IMG/VR virus record: IMGVR_UViG_2734482790_000002
DNA length: 45,103 bases
Strand: one strand, 5' to 3'
Origin: a virus
Taxonomy: Duplodnaviria > Heunggongvirae > Uroviricota > Caudoviricetes
Under the pieces are notes generated by a model, which was not told where the DNA came from, did not search any database, and saw nothing but the letters and a program-made list of their open reading frames with translations. A program made the translations under genes and the position numbers. Within the stretch, counting starts at the first letter, position 1. Every line of letters begins with the position of its first letter. Positions 1,963-29,867 of this stretch are shown in pieces.

Positions 1963-4434
1963 TTAAAAATCAGCCTGACTCGGGATCAGTTTTTGCCAGA
2001 TAGCTGAAACGTATTTTGCCTGGTAACGGGCGTCATCAAGTGCATTGTGGCGCTCACCTTCGAATGGAATATCCGTTCTGGCATCGAAGTCTATGGCTTT
2101 CCCCAGCTCAACGATTGTGCGTACATCGCGATCGTTGTAGTAACGCCACGGGCAGGGGATCCCCTGCCGTTCGTATGAACGGCGCAAAATCGTGTTGTCG
2201 AAGTTGGCTCCATTTCCCCAGACCTGAACAAAAAATTCACCGGAGTTTTCGTCGATAAATTCCCGCAATTGTAACAGTGCATCATCTAACGGGATTTCAT
2301 CGGTCATAATGGCAGATTGCGCTTCGCGTGATTGCTTAAGCCACCATTTAATGGTGTCCCGATCAATGACTCCGCCAGCAGTTTCCAGATCGATAGTCTT
2401 ACTAAATTCCGGTCCCATATCTCCGGTTTGCGGATCGAAAAATATTGCACCTATTGAGATAATCGGGGCATCAGGATTTTTTCCCATGGTTTCAAGGTCG
2501 ATCATTAGATGGTCACACGTCCTGCTGGTGGATGCGATAACGTGATGACCGTTCACCGTAATTAAGGGATCTGCCGTCTCGCCAGTTTCACTATCGCTGG
2601 CGTGATCCTGAGCGCTGCCAGCATTCTCCTTGTGTGGATGTTCAGCGCCTTCCATTTTCTCCGAATCGTCTTCCTGAACTTCAACCTGGTTCTTGTCATC
2701 GAATGTTTCCTGGTATGTTGCGTCGCCCATCACTGCACCACAATCAGGGCAGTTGCCGCCACCGCTTTGACCGCAGGCGGTGCAGATCTTTTCCGGTTCC
2801 TGTTGCACTACTGGTTCAGGTTGTTTCGTTTCTGGCTCGTTTTGTTGCGTATTTGGGCTGTTTTGTTCCGCTTTCTGGTCGTTCTGTTCCGTTTCTTGCT
2901 GGTTCTGGTTCACAGAATCGCGGGTTTCAATCCCCTTCACCCATTTCGGATCATTCGGATCGCTAATCCCTGCAACAAATTCACCACGTGATACTGCAAG
3001 CAGTTCATCGGCGTCAGGCTGGCTGATATTGGCTGCCTGCATAATTTTGTTTACTTCGTCAGCGGTAACTTTTACCGGCCCTGGTTGTGCGGTCGTGTCA
3101 GATGCACCAGTATTTTGTTGTGAACCTGAGTATGTACCGTTTTTGCGGGCGAAATATTCTTCTTTCGTGATTTCAGTAGCCCCGGCAGCCAGTGCCTTAT
3201 CCAGACCAGAAAGTTTGTTTGCGCGACCGTATTTTTCGCCATCCTTGTCGGTGAAGAGGAAGTAGAACGGCCCCTCACGCTCTACAGATGGTTCGACTTC
3301 CACTTTGCATTCGGTTTTTTCGTTGTCCGGAATTGCCGTTTCCACTGCATCAGTTTCTGGTACTGGCGACGAGAGAGTATCAGTTGCGCTCTGATTTCTT
3401 CCTTCATCTTCAAACACGCCCTTTGTAGTCAGGTATTCAGTAATGTATTTGTTCAGTGCTACTGGATCTTTGTGAATGTCGATCGGACGCTCACGGACAA
3501 GGCCAAAAATAGTCTGACGGTCGTAGCGAACGGCATCGGGTTGTTTGCGCATTGATGCGGAAATGCGCTTCCAGTCTTCGCGATCTTTGTCGATAACTTC
3601 ATTTTTTGCCCAGCGATGGATGCTGCCGTCAATGTTTCCGGCATTAATATCGCCAGGCCACAGAGCGTAGGCCAGTTCTTCATCCAGCGTTTTCCATGTC
3701 TGCTTGTATTCGCGATGAGTGGCAGCAATGACCGGGTTGATTTTTCCTGTTGAATTTTCAGTGTTCTGTTGATTGGCTCTGGCGCGGGCGAGATCAACAA
3801 CAGACGTGTATTTTCCGGTTTCCTTGCGTTCACCTTCGCGACGTTTTTTCCAGATGCGCATCTCTGCCTGAATTTCGGGCCATTTGGCACCAGGCTTACA
3901 TTTATGCTTAACCCACCCGATGGCATGCAGCTTAAGCTCCGGATACATGGCGTTAACTTCTGGCATTTTCATCAATGCTTCAACGATATGTCCGTCGAAT
4001 GTTGCCATGTCTTCCTGCAACAATTCCTGTGCGCTAATCACCATATCAACGGTGATGTTTTCACATGTGTCGAACTTAACCATGACAGCGTTCTGTACTT
4101 CAGGGGCCAGCTTGTCAAAAGTGACGTTCATCGGATCGGATTCAGTCTCAACCGGTACAAAGGAAGCAGACTCCTCATCCCAGCGGTTTTCCTGCATATA
4201 TTCAGCATCCCAGGAATCGAGGGCAGGGCGGGGTATACCGGGTTTATCCTCGCAAACAAGAAATTTATAAGCGCAGTCCTGAGCAGCCGGATAATGTTCC
4301 AGGAATTGCCAGTGAAATTTTGCGCGGGCGCGACGTTCATCACCGGCTTCAATGGCAGTGGCTACAGCGACTGCACCTTCTTCCTTTATTGCCTGTTCGT
4401 CCGGAATGGCGGCGCAAATAAAGACTTTACTCAT
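1963..4434 (-). CDS. large exonuclease with C-terminal DnaQ-like (DEDDh) 3'-5' exonuclease domain; exodeoxyribonuclease VIII-like prophage protein
   Basis: 823 aa; C-terminal MIDLETMG...NGANFD...HNALDDA motifs of DEDD exonucleases; acidic, low-complexity central region with a CTACGQSGGGNCPDCG zinc ribbon; sits at the exo position of the leftward early operon. Confidence 0.6.
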   Translation of the reverse strand: MSKVFICAAIPDEQAIKEEGAVAVATAIEAGDERRARAKFHWQFLEHYPAAQDCAYKFLVCEDKPGIPRPALDSWDAEYMQENRWDEESASFVPVETESDPMNVTFDKLAPEVQNAVMVKFDTCENITVDMVISAQELLQEDMATFDGHIVEALMKMPEVNAMYPELKLHAIGWVKHKCKPGAKWPEIQAEMRIWKKRREGERKETGKYTSVVDLARARANQQNTENSTGKINPVIAATHREYKQTWKTLDEELAYALWPGDINAGNIDGSIHRWAKNEVIDKDREDWKRISASMRKQPDAVRYDRQTIFGLVRERPIDIHKDPVALNKYITEYLTTKGVFEDEGRNQSATDTLSSPVPETDAVETAIPDNEKTECKVEVEPSVEREGPFYFLFTDKDGEKYGRANKLSGLDKALAAGATEITKEEYFARKNGTYSGSQQNTGASDTTAQPGPVKVTADEVNKIMQAANISQPDADELLAVSRGEFVAGISDPNDPKWVKGIETRDSVNQNQQETEQNDQKAEQNSPNTQQNEPETKQPEPVVQQEPEKICTACGQSGGGNCPDCGAVMGDATYQETFDDKNQVEVQEDDSEKMEGAEHPHKENAGSAQDHASDSETGETADPLITVNGHHVIASTSRTCDHLMIDLETMGKNPDAPIISIGAIFFDPQTGDMGPEFSKTIDLETAGGVIDRDTIKWWLKQSREAQSAIMTDEIPLDDALLQLREFIDENSGEFFVQVWGNGANFDNTILRRSYERQGIPCPWRYYNDRDVRTIVELGKAIDFDARTDIPFEGERHNALDDARYQAKYVSAIWQKLIPSQADF

Positions 4435-4718: not shown

Positions 4719-4903
4719 TGCCAGTATCCTTTTTGAGTCGGACGTAAACGGGCCAGCATAGAAAGAATGCAAATTTGATTTAATAACTCCCGTTCGTGTT
4801 TTCTCTTATTAATGGCATCTTCAGTAAATACAGGGTTACTGATTCTGACACCAATTTCAAAACAACCTTCAGACGTATTAACGTTTGGTAATAACGTTTC
4901 CAT
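4715..4903 (-). CDS. small hypothetical protein (62 aa), first gene of the leftward early operon
   Basis: ORF coupled to the downstream small gene; central basic/amphipathic stretch KRKHERELLNQICILSML; function unknown. Confidence 0.4.
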   Translation of the reverse strand: METLLPNVNTSEGCFEIGVRISNPVFTEDAINKRKHERELLNQICILSMLARLRPTQKGYWQ

Positions 4904-4920
4904 TATCGCGTCCTCAACAA

Positions 4921-5080
4921 TGAATTTTGTGATGCGGTGCCTGGTGCCTCCAGGTGACGTTAACCAGTTAACAATTAACGCCGGATACAGGGAAACCCAT
5001 AAACACCCGATACGGGGGAACTAATCGCTTTTTAACTGTTCCGCGTGCGCTCAGCCGCATTCACCGCATCACAAAATTCA
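4921..5080. repeat. perfect 19-bp inverted repeat pair (tgaattttgtgatgcggtg / caccgcatcacaaaattca) flanking ~122 bp that carries three TTAAC motifs
   Basis: exact reverse complementarity between 4921-4939 and 5062-5080; internal gttaaccagttaacaattaacg. Confidence 0.8.
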
Positions 5081-5381
5081 CTTTAAAAAGGGCGGACATC
5101 AGCCAGCAATGAAACTGATGCCGCCAAAGGTACAAATCAACATGGAGTGTTGTAGCGGGGTTGTCACTCAGGCGTATGGTCAACCTGACAACCCGGTGCT
5201 ACCAGTGGGGGTAAGGATAACCCCGCCATACTTACCGCCGCGCCATTTCGCGGAGTGCCACAACCGGAAGCGCACGGTCGAAGATACCGGCGACACGCAA
5301 CAGAGGGAGAAATGACTTCGCCGTGCGCTTTCGTGTTGTGTGCCTGCTTTTAACCACGTCAGGCGAGGTGGTTCCTGTCAT

Positions 5382-5425
5382 TCCCCAACGACAAGAAATC
5401 TGTATAATCTGGATATCCCCAACGA
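5382..5425 (+). promoter_or_regulatory. candidate sigma70 promoter (perfect -10 TATAAT with TG just upstream) flanked by direct repeats tccccaacga
   Basis: tgTATAAT at about 5401-5408; 10-bp direct repeats at about 5382-5391 and 5416-5425; good SD (aaggaa) and ATG at 5440 follow; the -35 is weak. Confidence 0.5.
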
Positions 5426-5439
5426 TCCAAGGAAATCAT

Positions 5440-5586
5440 ATGACAGAGCAAAGAGCACAAGCAGGTGGTGGCAATTCGACACATAAAACAGTCTGGGATC
5501 ACATACCAGAGAAAAACATTCGACCAAAACCATCTCCAGCTCCTTCGGAGGAGAGGGGGAACAGCAACAACCAAACAAGCAGGTGA
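5440..5586 (+). CDS. small hypothetical protein (48 aa), first gene of a rightward cassette
   Basis: ATG preceded by aaggaa SD; its stop overlaps the SD of the next gene; no recognisable motif. Confidence 0.35.
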   Translation: MTEQRAQAGGGNSTHKTVWDHIPEKNIRPKPSPAPSEERGNSNNQTSR

Positions 5587-5592
5587 TGATGT

Positions 5593-6039
5593 ATGGACCG
5601 GGATGATATTCTTGACAGAATTTTATATGGCTATTTTCTTGAGCAACTATTTTCTGTAGCGACTGGTCGTCTCGATAAACTTCTCTCAGTGGTGAGTATT
5701 ATCCTCGGTTCATCTGTCATTGGCGGATTCATTCCGGAAATTTCTGGCGTTTTTATTGTTGTGATCGCAACCGTCCAAACGATTTATGGATTCGGACAAA
5801 AGTCAGGTAACGCCATGAGAAAATCCGCAGAATATTTGCAGCTTTTTGATGATGCAGAAAAATATTCTGATTCTGAATTGAAAATGCAGTTAAAAATTCT
5901 GGAAAAAACGGATGATCATATTTGGTCATCACTTAAAGATATTGCGATCTTAAAAACACAGATCAAAATAGGCGTTTCCATCGAACAACAAGAGAAGCTG
6001 CCCACAAAATCTAAATTGATGCGATTTCTTTGTGGTTAG
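5593..6039 (+). CDS. membrane protein with two adjacent TM helices and a ~80-aa C-terminal soluble tail; candidate superinfection-exclusion or abortive-infection effector
   Basis: 148 aa; SD aggtga 6 nt upstream; TM1 LLSVVSIILGSSVIGGFI and TM2 ISGVFIVVIATVQTIYGF; converges on the cI operon. Confidence 0.6.
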   Translation: MDRDDILDRILYGYFLEQLFSVATGRLDKLLSVVSIILGSSVIGGFIPEISGVFIVVIATVQTIYGFGQKSGNAMRKSAEYLQLFDDAEKYSDSELKMQLKILEKTDDHIWSSLKDIAILKTQIKIGVSIEQQEKLPTKSKLMRFLCG

Positions 6040-6092
6040 GAATATCCAGAATGTTAAAGAGCATGCCGGAGATTTATCCGTGTCCGGCGCAT

Positions 6093-6117
6093 GTTCTCCA
6101 CCTCACCCGTGGAGAAC
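6093..6117. terminator. hairpin between convergent genes (probable terminator of the rightward cassette)
   Basis: gttctccac-ctcaccc-gtggagaac, 9-bp stem; followed on the + strand by ttaatgattaatt (U-rich but interrupted). Confidence 0.5.
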
Positions 6118-6504
6118 TTAATGATTAATTGATATTTTATAGTTGGCTTCAACTTTCCCATCTGAAGTGGGATGCTTTAAATCACAGGAATTAATGTTGC
6201 ACTCAGTAAAATGGTTTTTAAGGGGTTCTATTCGAATCCCTTTCTTTTCCATCAACAAACCAAACCCCTTGTTAATGATATCCATTAATTCCAGGAAGTA
6301 TTTTTCAGAGGAATCATGCTTATCAGAGTGCTGCTTCTCTTCGTACAACCCGATAAAGGCACGGCGCACGTTACCGGATATATTATCTATGGTTTCTTTT
6401 TCTACGGTACTCAGGTCAAGAGTCGCCAATTGAGAACGAACTATATTCGCTGCCATTTCCTGGAAAGGTGTTGGTAAATCTTTAAATTCCATCGTTAATC
6501 TCAT
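6118..6504 (-). CDS. hypothetical protein (128 aa), second gene of the cassette downstream of cI (rexAB-equivalent position)
   Basis: ORF whose start overlaps the upstream stop by one base (TGATG); acidic, soluble, no TM segment and no motif I can name. Confidence 0.55.
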   Translation of the reverse strand: MRLTMEFKDLPTPFQEMAANIVRSQLATLDLSTVEKETIDNISGNVRRAFIGLYEEKQHSDKHDSSEKYFLELMDIINKGFGLLMEKKGIRIEPLKNHFTECNINSCDLKHPTSDGKVEANYKISINH

Positions 6505-6734
6505 CAGTCAGTATTTCTGGATAACCAGCGACGCGCGCCAGCTTCGGTTTTAAACGTTTTGCTTTTGGTATACGTCATCGCGGTGAACGTACCGTCCTGG
6601 TTGGGAAACACGCCACATACCAGAGATTCGCTGTTGCCAAGATCGATAGTATCCATGTTGACCTCATTTCCCCTTAACGCCGGGGTAGCGGAACAAAAAC
6701 CTGCTGCATAGTTAAAGTTGAACCCTGCCGTCAT
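6504..6734 (-). CDS. hypothetical small protein (76 aa; alternative start at 6656 gives 50 aa), first gene of the cassette downstream of cI
   Basis: ORF in the same orientation as cI; the internal Met at 6656 has a better SD (gagg); C-terminal KTFKTEAGARRWL resembles small antitoxin-like alpha/beta folds but I cannot verify this. Confidence 0.5.
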   Translation of the reverse strand: MTAGFNFNYAAGFCSATPALRGNEVNMDTIDLGNSESLVCGVFPNQDGTFTAMTYTKSKTFKTEAGARRWLSRNTD

Positions 6735-6832: not shown

Positions 6833-6861
6833 AGTTTAGAAAAATGAACTTTTCAGGTCAA
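6833..6861 (-). promoter_or_regulatory. candidate internal promoter for the cassette downstream of cI (by analogy with lambda pLIT)
   Basis: minus-strand TTGACC - 17 bp - TAAACT in the cI-to-cassette gap. Confidence 0.4.
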
Positions 6862-6945: not shown

Positions 6946-7584
6946 TTAAATATCTTGTTGAATTTTAAAGCATACGCCCAATATGCAAGATAGATCATCC
7001 AGCATAATTGAAGGGTAGCGAGGATTCGTGGGGACTAAAAGAATATCCGGCCCTTCTATCTCCAGTTTACGAATGACAGGTGTTGTGGTCCCTTTGGGTA
7101 AGGCAAGGACAATATTTCCTGGTTGTACGGTTCGATCGGGATCAACAAAAACTGTTGAACCATTTGGGATGGAAACTCCCCCACCAGATGTTGACATACT
7201 GTCACTCTCTAGAACAACTGCAAAGGTATTGGCCGGGATTTCTCCGACAAGCTGCACACAAGAGGTTATTGAGGAATTTTTCATATAATCACTCCAGCTT
7301 GCTGCCTGCTGAAGTGATAGTAGCGGAACCGTTTTTATCGGCGGTAAAGATAGATCAAGCGAATCACCTGTATTTAACTCTCCTCCATTAAGAAGCCAAT
7401 TTTCGTTTACTTTCAATATCTTTGCCAGTGAACTTATGTAACGCGAGGACGGCGCTCCTCCACCGTTCATCCATTGACTTACGGAGCCTTTTGATGCGCC
7501 AGTGGCATTGACAAGGTCTTTGCCTTTCAGGTTTAGCGCATGCATACGTTGGGTTATGCGTTCAGATATTGTTTGCTTGCTCAT
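6946..7584 (-). CDS. cI: CI-type prophage repressor (HTH-XRE N-terminal domain plus S24 LexA-like autopeptidase domain)
   Basis: 212 aa; N-terminal HTH (GASKGSVSQWMNG); C-terminal S24 domain with catalytic Ser (VLESDSM) and Lys (IRKLEIEG); divergent from cro. Confidence 0.9.
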   Translation of the reverse strand: MSKQTISERITQRMHALNLKGKDLVNATGASKGSVSQWMNGGGAPSSRYISSLAKILKVNENWLLNGGELNTGDSLDLSLPPIKTVPLLSLQQAASWSDYMKNSSITSCVQLVGEIPANTFAVVLESDSMSTSGGGVSIPNGSTVFVDPDRTVQPGNIVLALPKGTTTPVIRKLEIEGPDILLVPTNPRYPSIMLDDLSCILGVCFKIQQDI

Positions 7585-7675: not shown

Positions 7676-7906
7676 ATGAAAAAATCAGAAGTATTAGGCT
7701 ATTTTGGCGGAGTTGTTAAAACAGCCGCAGCTCTAGGAACGTCAAAAACCACAGTCAGCATGTGGGGGGAAGAGGTTCCGTGGAAATGGGCGTTGCTAAT
7801 TCAGGCAGTCACTGCCGGGGCGCTCAAATATGAGTTACACATACCGACGGTTGTCATTCCCGGTTCTGATCATAATCCGCCTTCTAACCAAGGGGGGGAT
7901 TCATGA
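7676..7906 (+). CDS. cro: Cro-like small HTH regulator
   Basis: 76 aa from the Met with a ggag SD; HTH-like ALGTSKTTVSMWG; first gene of the rightward operon, divergent from cI. Confidence 0.7.
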   Translation: MKKSEVLGYFGGVVKTAAALGTSKTTVSMWGEEVPWKWALLIQAVTAGALKYELHIPTVVIPGSDHNPPSNQGGDS

Positions 7907-29543: not shown

Positions 29544-29867
29544 ATGGCAAAGAATTTTGTAGAAGAAGGAAAAACGGTGGCGATTGTTGCCAGTGCAGCC
29601 ATCAGCAGCGGAGATCTGGTGCAGGTGGGTGATGTTTTTGCGGTGGCGCTGACCGATATTCCACAGGGTGAAACAGGCGACGGCCTGACCGAAGGTGTGT
29701 TTATGCTGCCTAAGCTGAAAACGGATGACATGAAAACGGGTAAGAAGGTTTATCTGAAGTCCGGAAAAGTTCAGCTGACTAACAGCGGCTCTGATCCGCT
29801 GGTCGGGGTTGTCTGGGCAGATGCCGGAACCAGTGCAGAAGAAGTGCCGGTAAAACTCAATGTCTGA
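29544..29867 (+). CDS. head-associated protein (DUF2190-like; possible decoration or head-completion protein)
   Basis: 107 aa from the internal Met with ggaga SD; position after the capsid gene. Confidence 0.5.
   Translation: MAKNFVEEGKTVAIVASAAISSGDLVQVGDVFAVALTDIPQGETGDGLTEGVFMLPKLKTDDMKTGKKVYLKSGKVQLTNSGSDPLVGVVWADAGTSAEEVPVKLNV

Follow-up and report, generated by a model that had tools for sequence, protein, structure and literature searches.

A promoter and antisense module homologous to that of P22 sieB heads a candidate exclusion cassette in a Qin-like Escherichia coli prophage

What is the function of a small gene cassette that is read against the direction of the prophage operon in which it lies? 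Such a cassette is found in the IMG/VR virus record IMGVR_UViG_2734482790_000002; the window, i.e., the whole stretch of 45,103 nucleotides (nt) that was analyzed, is a lambdoid, Qin-like Escherichia coli prophage, and the tested stretch is identical to E. coli 1303, where the locus lies at NZ_CP009166 1323715–1324615. A preliminary description, made from the letters alone, had placed at positions 5382–6117 a 48-amino-acid (aa) open reading frame (ORF) and a 148-aa protein with two transmembrane (TM) helices, both rightward and behind their own promoter, with a TATAAT -10 hexamer bracketed by two 10-bp copies of TCCCCAACGA. It had compared this architecture to that of superinfection-exclusion or abortive-infection effectors. 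Both ORFs, the hexamer, and the repeats are present in the sequence and in the ORF list, the Shine–Dalgarno (SD) sequence of the membrane gene does contain the TGA stop of the small ORF, and the cassette is indeed self-contained and antisense within the leftward early operon. We propose, with a probability of roughly 55%, that it is a moron in the slot of sieB: a module of the P_sieB/sas type would drive a two-gene exclusion or abortive-infection operon in place of sieB. While the regulatory half of this arrangement is already known from P22 sieB/sas, the cargo is uncharacterized.

The evidence starts upstream of the small ORF. Window positions 5339–5437 aligned with the sas/P_sieB region of P22 with 78 of 107 positions identical (73%), and the -10 element, both repeats, the hairpin, and the GCCTG motif were all in register. 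In the P22 record (BK000583), a “sieB promoter” is annotated at 29690–29720 and a “sieB RNA start site” at 29727 (position 1278 of our P22 locus, L184). The second repeat begins at this base, which aligned to window position 5416; the spacing of the repeats is 34 nt in both phages, and repeat 1 aligned to ACCCCTACAG at L184 1244–1253, within the annotated sieB promoter. The same layout is found immediately upstream of sieB in lambda (L011 1391–1492) and in P22 (L184 1187–1313), with ACCCCTACAG as the repeat in both, and in both phages sieB is, like the cassette, a plus-strand gene inside the leftward operon. By homology to the P22 sieB RNA start, transcription should begin at about 5415–5416. 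The promoter postulated in the preliminary description is thus homologous to an experimentally mapped prophage promoter.

SieB aborts lytic growth, and the antisense RNA sas switches translation from SieB to Esc (PMC12197685, PMC7067206). The sequence of P22 sas, printed in an RNA-seq paper (PMC13397905, 2026), mapped exactly to the minus strand of L184 1187–1313, that is, to the complement of the module; it spans from the sieB start codon over both repeats and the hairpin to just beyond GCCTG. The conserved leader element of the window (Table 1) is homologous to the 3′ stem-loop region of this RNA. Its stem varies with preservation of pairing, as CCTCA/TGAGG in a Providencia phage, CTAC/GTAG in L004, TCCAC/GTGGA in L136, and AACTAC/GTGGTT in L133 (with a G·U pair on the plus strand). 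The fold of the hairpin is thermodynamically not unusual (z -0.46 and -0.35), and no Rfam family matched the module. From the conserved sequence we infer that the prophage of the window expresses a sas-like RNA, with a predicted 3′ end between ~5347 and ~5325 by analogy to the 105- and 127-nt forms of P22. An explanation of the 5′ untranslated region (UTR) and small-ORF region by RNA structure was also considered and is unsupported (z -0.44 and +0.60).

The homology to P_sieB/sas explains why conservation extends upstream of the -35 region, why the hairpin shows compensatory stem changes, and why both repeat copies change in concert between lineages (CCCCAACGA, CCCCAACAAC, ACCACAACG, CCCCTACAG). 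Instead of sites for an unknown regulator, as had been suggested before, the repeats are thus more plausibly components of a promoter/antisense switch; a regulator would be compatible with this and is not needed. The TCCCCAACGA copies, 34 nt apart, are the sole exact copies in the 45-kb window, although a pair of 10-mers is by itself unremarkable, as 900 nt of this sequence contain four repeat families. Both repeats, the intervening -10-like element, the small ORF, and the 2-TM ORF recur together in divergent cassettes from more than 14 independent phage contexts, and for this reason the layout is beyond chance. The -10-like element was at the same position in every cassette variant; TAATCT, which overlaps the hexamer of the window, is the form retained in other cassettes.

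Some variants of this region were observed in addition. In the IMG/VR locus L030, a 9-bp tandem duplication (AATCTGTAT), aligned to window 5395–5410, doubles the -10 region and lengthens the spacing of the repeats. Three distant homologues without the sieB-type module (L053, L059, and L060) carry an extended -10 TGnTAAGAT about 35–70 nt upstream of the small ORF and, directly before the SD sequence, a stretch rich in C and A (CCCCAC... or AACAACCACC) that recalls repeat 2; L060 has a GCCTG...CAGGC hairpin in its 5′ UTR, past the -10 element. Readings of CCCCAAC/TCTGA as a sigma-32 or sigma-E promoter, of CTGTCAT as a Pho box, of integron attC-like cores, and of a DnaA box in the hairpin were dropped, as conservation did not support them.

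Loci with the module were collected by a degenerate DNA pattern scan of IMG/VR and scripts; most matches were chance matches, and only loci with both repeats were used. The order of elements was GCCTG, the hairpin with TCAGGC in its loop, TTCCCCAACAAC, TAATCT or TATAAT as the -10-like element, ATCCCCAACAAC, the SD sequence, and the start codon. In IMG/VR prophages the module, which occupies 5330–5445 in the window, was present upstream of at least seven unrelated first genes (loci L067–L142), and in view of these unrelated cargos it can be regarded as a portable expression unit. Among the other cargos are a 144-aa protein (MSGNIYTLYK...), a 151–173-aa family with a coiled coil and a zinc ribbon, a pair of 78 and 317 aa, a BssS-family protein, and others; no PADLOC model matched any of them. 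The sieB slot thus appears to be a general position for the hot-swapping of genes that prophages express.

The borders of the insert agree with such an exchange. Phage Tritos shares both flanks and lacks the cassette, with ~40 nt in place of the ~720 nt found here, and in phage mEp460 the left flank is shared as far as window position ~5372, where a different rightward ORF of 66 aa follows behind the same leader. At least 80% of window 5300–6200 was present in 68 of 5426 complete E. coli genomes, and the cassette was found beside different immunity regions, LexA-like cI as well as DicA/DicC. With the insertion breakpoints mapped, the cassette is present in some phages and absent from others at one and the same position, bordered by conserved phage genes, and it has a predicted promoter of its own, as expected of a moron.

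The second gene encodes a protein with two adjacent hydrophobic helices (residues ~29–47 and 48–67, Kyte–Doolittle), as the preliminary description had it, connected by a loop of about three residues. Four lysine or arginine residues precede TM1 and 14 follow TM2; because of this charge distribution both ends were placed in the cytoplasm, which fits an N-in/C-in topology with almost nothing in the periplasm. An AlphaFold2 model based on an 18-sequence alignment reached a predicted local distance difference test score (pLDDT) of 87.8 and a predicted template modeling score of 0.79; a run with seven close sequences (pLDDT 57.7) was not used. The model comprises helices 3–44, 48–65, 67–86, 93–105, 113–126, and 138–147, in which a long N-terminal helix continues into TM1 and, after a three-residue turn, TM2 continues into a C-terminal helical bundle.

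No family had been recognized before, and this holds for Pfam and NCBIfam: sequence searches of both databases and of the PDB with the 148-aa protein and 83 relatives gave nothing meaningful. The protein nevertheless belongs to PHROG 6315 (function unknown, E 1.4e-23), and a profile search of 1.84 billion representatives yielded 145 family clusters at 50% identity. Full-length members are stand-alone proteins of ~140–190 aa, the shorter matches being fragments. Distant members (20–30% identity) were present in prophages from Citrobacter, Providencia, Polynucleobacter, and metagenomes; no relative was found in a scan of GTDB representative genomes, and every context seen was that of a phage or prophage. 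Most of the genes are embedded antisense in the early-left operon, close to the repressor; this holds for lambdoid as well as P2-like prophages, among them those of E. coli and Salmonella. Two genes lie elsewhere, for instance that of phage EKP1, which is located between Q and holin. Homology to SieB was rejected: Pfam PF14163 did not match at E ≤ 1, while it matched P22 and lambda SieB at 4e-29 and 1e-29, and hhalign gave a probability of 0.2% for the family profiles A3 and A4 against lambda SieB. M75, the one internal methionine past the TM hairpin that could start an Esc-like product, shows no conservation across the homologues.

In its predicted fold the protein resembles SLATT proteins, which are effectors of DRT10 defence (bioRxiv 10.64898/2026.04.29.721553). 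In a Foldseek search against viral predicted structures (BFVD), 9 of the named top 18 matches were annotated as SLATT, with probabilities of ~1 and TM-scores of 0.55–0.68, and the SLATT architecture likewise has a 2-TM hairpin in its center, with helices on the N- and C-terminal sides. Hidden Markov models supported the relation marginally: the PADLOC model RTasSLATT matched the query with E 0.002 and 3 of the 83 relatives (best 2.7e-4), a second RTasSLATT model matched 1 of 83, and one relative matched the “2TM effector” model of CBASS. Together with the sieB slot, the fold of a known class of 2-TM effectors lends support to the exclusion or abortive-infection architecture that had been suggested for the cassette.

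The first gene is not annotated by PGAP. It encodes a hydrophilic protein rich in proline, whose conserved core is HIPEKNIRPxPxP; in the nine-codon motif HIPEKNIRP of the enterobacterial subfamily, 42 synonymous differences were counted against 15 (mostly conservative) non-synonymous ones, and the small ORF is thus under purifying selection as a peptide. In every context examined, a hydrophilic ORF of 27–52 aa with 9–28% proline ends 3–18 nt before the 2-TM gene; this was observed in 14 contexts besides the window, with identities of the 2-TM protein as low as 20%. A looser motif, H-[IV]-P followed after a few residues by [RK]-P-x-P-x-P, is shared across subfamilies. In L090, a second proline-rich mini-ORF (MNAFIYTWKEDHIPLKPRPSPPEPKPKSR) was noticed after the 2-TM gene, +461 to +792 past the module of that locus, and may be a remnant of another cassette of the same kind.

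From the homology of the regulatory module, the position, and the fold we infer how the cassette could work, with less confidence in any individual step than in the reading as a whole. In the lysogen, where the leftward early operon is repressed, rightward transcription would start at ~5415–5416 and the transcript would yield the proline-rich peptide and then the 148-aa inner-membrane protein. The latter would be the effector, with its N- and C-terminal helices forming a cytoplasmic bundle on the 2-TM hairpin; upon a cytoplasmic cue from an infecting phage it would perturb the membrane, as proposed for SLATT proteins and, functionally, as SieB does. The peptide would set or gate the activity of the effector, either as a partner or by controlling its translation. 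During lytic growth of the prophage itself, leftward transcription would produce the sas-like RNA, which would cover the 5′ end, the SD sequence, and the start codon of the small ORF and switch the cassette off or re-program it, and the phage would escape its own weapon. In analogy to SieB/Esc, where sas blocks the upstream start and the downstream start continues to be used, the peptide could be the component required for activity. This leads to a more specific and tentative proposal, which we consider possible at rather long odds: peptide and SLATT-like protein would form a two-component abortive-infection system with a SieB/Esc-like switch, in which the sas-type RNA blocks only the upstream ORF and the membrane protein becomes inactive without a short-lived peptide, and the module would be a plug-and-play unit that provides lysogen-specific expression and self-immunity for any toxic cargo.

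Several observations weigh against the proposed exclusion or abortive-infection operon. At the level of expression, a scan for consensus sigma-70 promoters does not call the promoter, whose -35 region is poor (TTCCCC, 16-nt spacer), and the promoter scan revealed no consensus minus-strand promoter in the cassette. As to the fold, the Pfam SLATT models matched neither the query (E ≤ 1) nor any of the 83 relatives (E ≤ 0.01), and in ~20 contexts no cyclase, SMODS, SLOG, reverse transcriptase (RT), or other sensor gene adjoined the 2-TM gene. The antisense embedding is not universal, as the L059 cassette is co-directional with its neighbors and lies before baseplate genes. Some of the cargo in the slot has no obvious role in defence, such as the BssS-family protein, and position is therefore no proof of defence. 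The small ORF itself can be lost: its body is flanked by 14-nt direct repeats, ACAAGCAGGTG(G/A)TG, at 5457–5470 and 5575–5588, and in six IMG/VR loci (L018–L020, L026, L027, and L049) recombination between them has deleted 118 bp. Five of the six retain an intact 148-aa ORF (97–99% identical) and an intact promoter module, while in L049 the 148-aa ORF is also shortened, to 119 aa. As five loci lost the 118 bp and kept the 148-aa ORF, the peptide is dispensable at least for persistence of the gene; in these loci a residual out-of-frame ORF overlaps the 2-TM start, and translation of the 2-TM gene may be altered. An E. coli match, H48, was rejected as a further deletion variant, since it represents an alternative allele of the small ORF. 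Finally, no description of the micro-ORF or of the 148-aa protein was found in the literature.

Other functions of the pair have to be considered. In lysogenic conversion the 2-TM protein would be a benign membrane factor with a role in host physiology, such as envelope stress, biofilm formation, or fitness. The same slot and module do carry the gene of the BssS family (a biofilm regulator) and several soluble proteins of unknown function, PADLOC recognized none of the other cargos, and the SLATT evidence is remote; yet sieB, the one gene of the slot that has been characterized, acts in abortive infection, the class that the fold matches is known solely for effectors of conflict systems, and the confinement of the family to phages and prophages in every context seen also speaks against a role in host physiology, which we regard as unlikely. 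A superinfection-exclusion protein comparable to P22 SieA, T4 Imm, or HK97 gp15, which would stop the DNA at the inner membrane, would likewise be an inner-membrane protein expressed from a prophage, and its TM hairpin could interact with the injection machinery or with the host channel used by that machinery. However, with a predicted periplasmic loop of about three residues and ~110 of 148 residues in the cytoplasm, nothing is placed to meet the incoming phage, and the relatives in fold are effectors triggered from the cytoplasm; an entry block of this kind is improbable. Tight linkage with the small gene first, a small protein that is probably disordered, and the frequency of membrane toxins in prophages would all suit a toxin–antitoxin or addiction pair, in which the 2-TM protein is constitutively toxic and the peptide its labile antitoxin. 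The five natural loci that have lost the bulk of the small ORF while the 148-aa ORF and the promoter module stayed intact make this very improbable, with the caveat that the residual out-of-frame ORF may lower translation of the 2-TM gene in them.

A further alternative concerns the role of the small ORF alone and is compatible with an exclusion or abortive-infection operon. The small ORF might be a translational leader and not a source of free peptide, its proline-rich stretch slowing ribosomes or termination by the 2-TM start and in this way setting, or through the antisense RNA switching, translation of the effector. The end of the small ORF always lies close to this start, in most subfamilies the Pro-rich motif is located 0–5 codons from the stop, PP or longer runs occur in all subfamilies except that of the window, and a sas-type RNA would cover exactly the ribosome-binding site of the small ORF. 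On the other hand, in the version of the window no two prolines are adjacent and 17 codons follow the motif, the SD sequence of the 2-TM gene was not found to be sequestered by mRNA structure (z -0.44), and the motif H-[IV]-P...[RK]-P-x-P shared by distant subfamilies would suit a binding peptide as well. SecM, TnaC, and SpeFL are regulatory leader or arrest peptides; the small ORF is like them a short ORF directly upstream of the gene that would be regulated, with conserved residues ending proline-rich, while it lacks a downstream RNA structure and its motif is unlike known arrest motifs. We consider a leader function a real possibility, short of an even chance.

The cassette lies between the 128-aa gene and DicF, on the strand opposite to both (Table 1). 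The preliminary description had it converge on the cI cassette; more precisely, it converges on the first two genes of the pL operon, with cI beyond pL, and cro and the replication genes are located with cI to the right of the cassette. Beyond DicF, the leftward operon continues with dicB, a DUF1482 gene, and a large exonuclease. The 823-aa early-left protein (1963–4434) has a C-terminal 3′-5′ exonuclease domain and a long, acidic, low-complexity N-terminal part. An STnc100-like match (4871–5092, minus strand) adjoins DicF upstream of dicB. The stretch from DicF to the module (5140–5335) is strongly conserved among dicB operons and has no convincing ORF; for these reasons we read it as presumably DicF precursor RNA. 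The gene at the cII position (7903–8328) is named “toxin YdaT family protein” in the identical E. coli 1303 record. At the right boundary of the slot, the double stem-loop showed folding z-scores of -4.5 (plus strand) and -2.9 (minus strand). It is not called by the terminator scan and has no U-tract; it is possibly the 3′ end or terminator of the cassette transcript, and it could alternatively be a processing site or an element that acts on leftward transcription. The same double stem-loop is found beside the ydfC stop in the cassette-less Tritos, behind other cargos, and, in the Citrobacter locus L050, ahead of the small ORF.

Table 1. Features in and around the cassette, in window coordinates.
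Feature	Position	Strand	Details
DicF small RNA match	5090–5138	minus	Rfam 38.7 bits, below the gathering score of 48
Predicted sas-like antisense RNA	5325–5444	minus	Complement of the whole module, from the small-ORF start codon to just past the hairpin
Conserved leader element	5342–5373		GCCTG 5342–5346; hairpin AACCAC 5352–5357 / GTGGTT 5368–5373; invariant loop motif TCAGGC
Direct repeat, copy 1 (TCCCCAACGA)	5382–5391	plus	~-34 to -25, i.e., -35 region of the predicted promoter
-10 hexamer TATAAT, P_sieB-type	5403–5408	plus	Aligned with TAAACT, the -10 in the P22 sieB promoter as annotated
Direct repeat, copy 2 (TCCCCAACGA)	5416–5425	plus	Predicted first 10 nt of the mRNA (+1 to +10)
Small ORF, 48 aa	5440–5586	plus	SD AAGGA 5429–5433; ATG 5440; TGA 5584–5586
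2-TM membrane ORF, 148 aa	5593–6039	plus	SD AGGTGA 5581–5586; 6-nt gap from the small-ORF stop to ATG
Double stem-loop	6065–6117		GCCGGA...TCCGGC 6065–6088; GTTCTCCAC...GTGGAGAAC 6093–6117; right boundary of the slot
128-aa gene	6118–6504	minus	pL operon
DUF1391/ydfA-like gene	6504–6734	minus	First gene of the pL operon
Putative pL	~6833–6861		Start of the leftward early operon
cI, LexA-type	6946–7584	minus	

Should the cassette be an exclusion system, prophage defences would gain a stand-alone SLATT-like effector whose partner is a micro-protein. It would then also offer a minimal system of two genes for studies of how SLATT effectors are triggered. Regardless of the function of the cargo, the sieB promoter/sas module, known from a single P22 case of 1993, is a widely shared enterobacterial cassette holder; no paper was found that describes the module as a shared holder for many cargos. 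It could serve as a search handle for prophage accessory genes and as a model of how phages avoid their own weapons.

The cassette can be compared with several known systems. It resembles the morons of lambdoid phages (Juhala et al. 2000; Cumby et al. 2012, cited in PMC7067206) as an independently promoted, variably present insert that is antisense to lytic genes and for which expression in the lysogen is expected; it differs from them in that its promoter is not private and is part of a conserved and shared module, whose opposite strand in addition encodes an antisense RNA. With SLATT proteins (described in 2015, as cited in bioRxiv 10.64898/2026.04.29.721553) the 148-aa protein shares a length in or near ~150–180 aa, a central 2-TM hairpin with cytoplasmic flanking helices, similarity in predicted structure, and a weak profile similarity to RT-associated SLATT. 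Unlike SLATT systems, the family has no adjacent cyclase, SLOG, RT, or non-coding RNA partner, its constant partner is the proline-rich ORF of 27–52 aa, and the cassettes are carried in phage early regions. A close counterpart is sieB-esc-sas of P22 and lambda (Ranade and Poteete 1993, as cited in PMC12197685, PMC7067206). While SieB and Esc are a nested pair there and the cassette has two separate ORFs, and while the repeat sequences differ (CCCCAACGA against CCCCTACAG), in both a rightward gene lies antisense in a leftward early operon behind a homologous promoter and leader with the hairpin and 34-nt-spaced 10-nt repeats, the second of which starts at the RNA start (by prediction in the cassette). 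In both, the complement of the module corresponds to the sas antisense RNA, and both loci encode an inner-membrane protein that combines two TM helices with a cytoplasmic part, as predicted here for the 148-aa protein.

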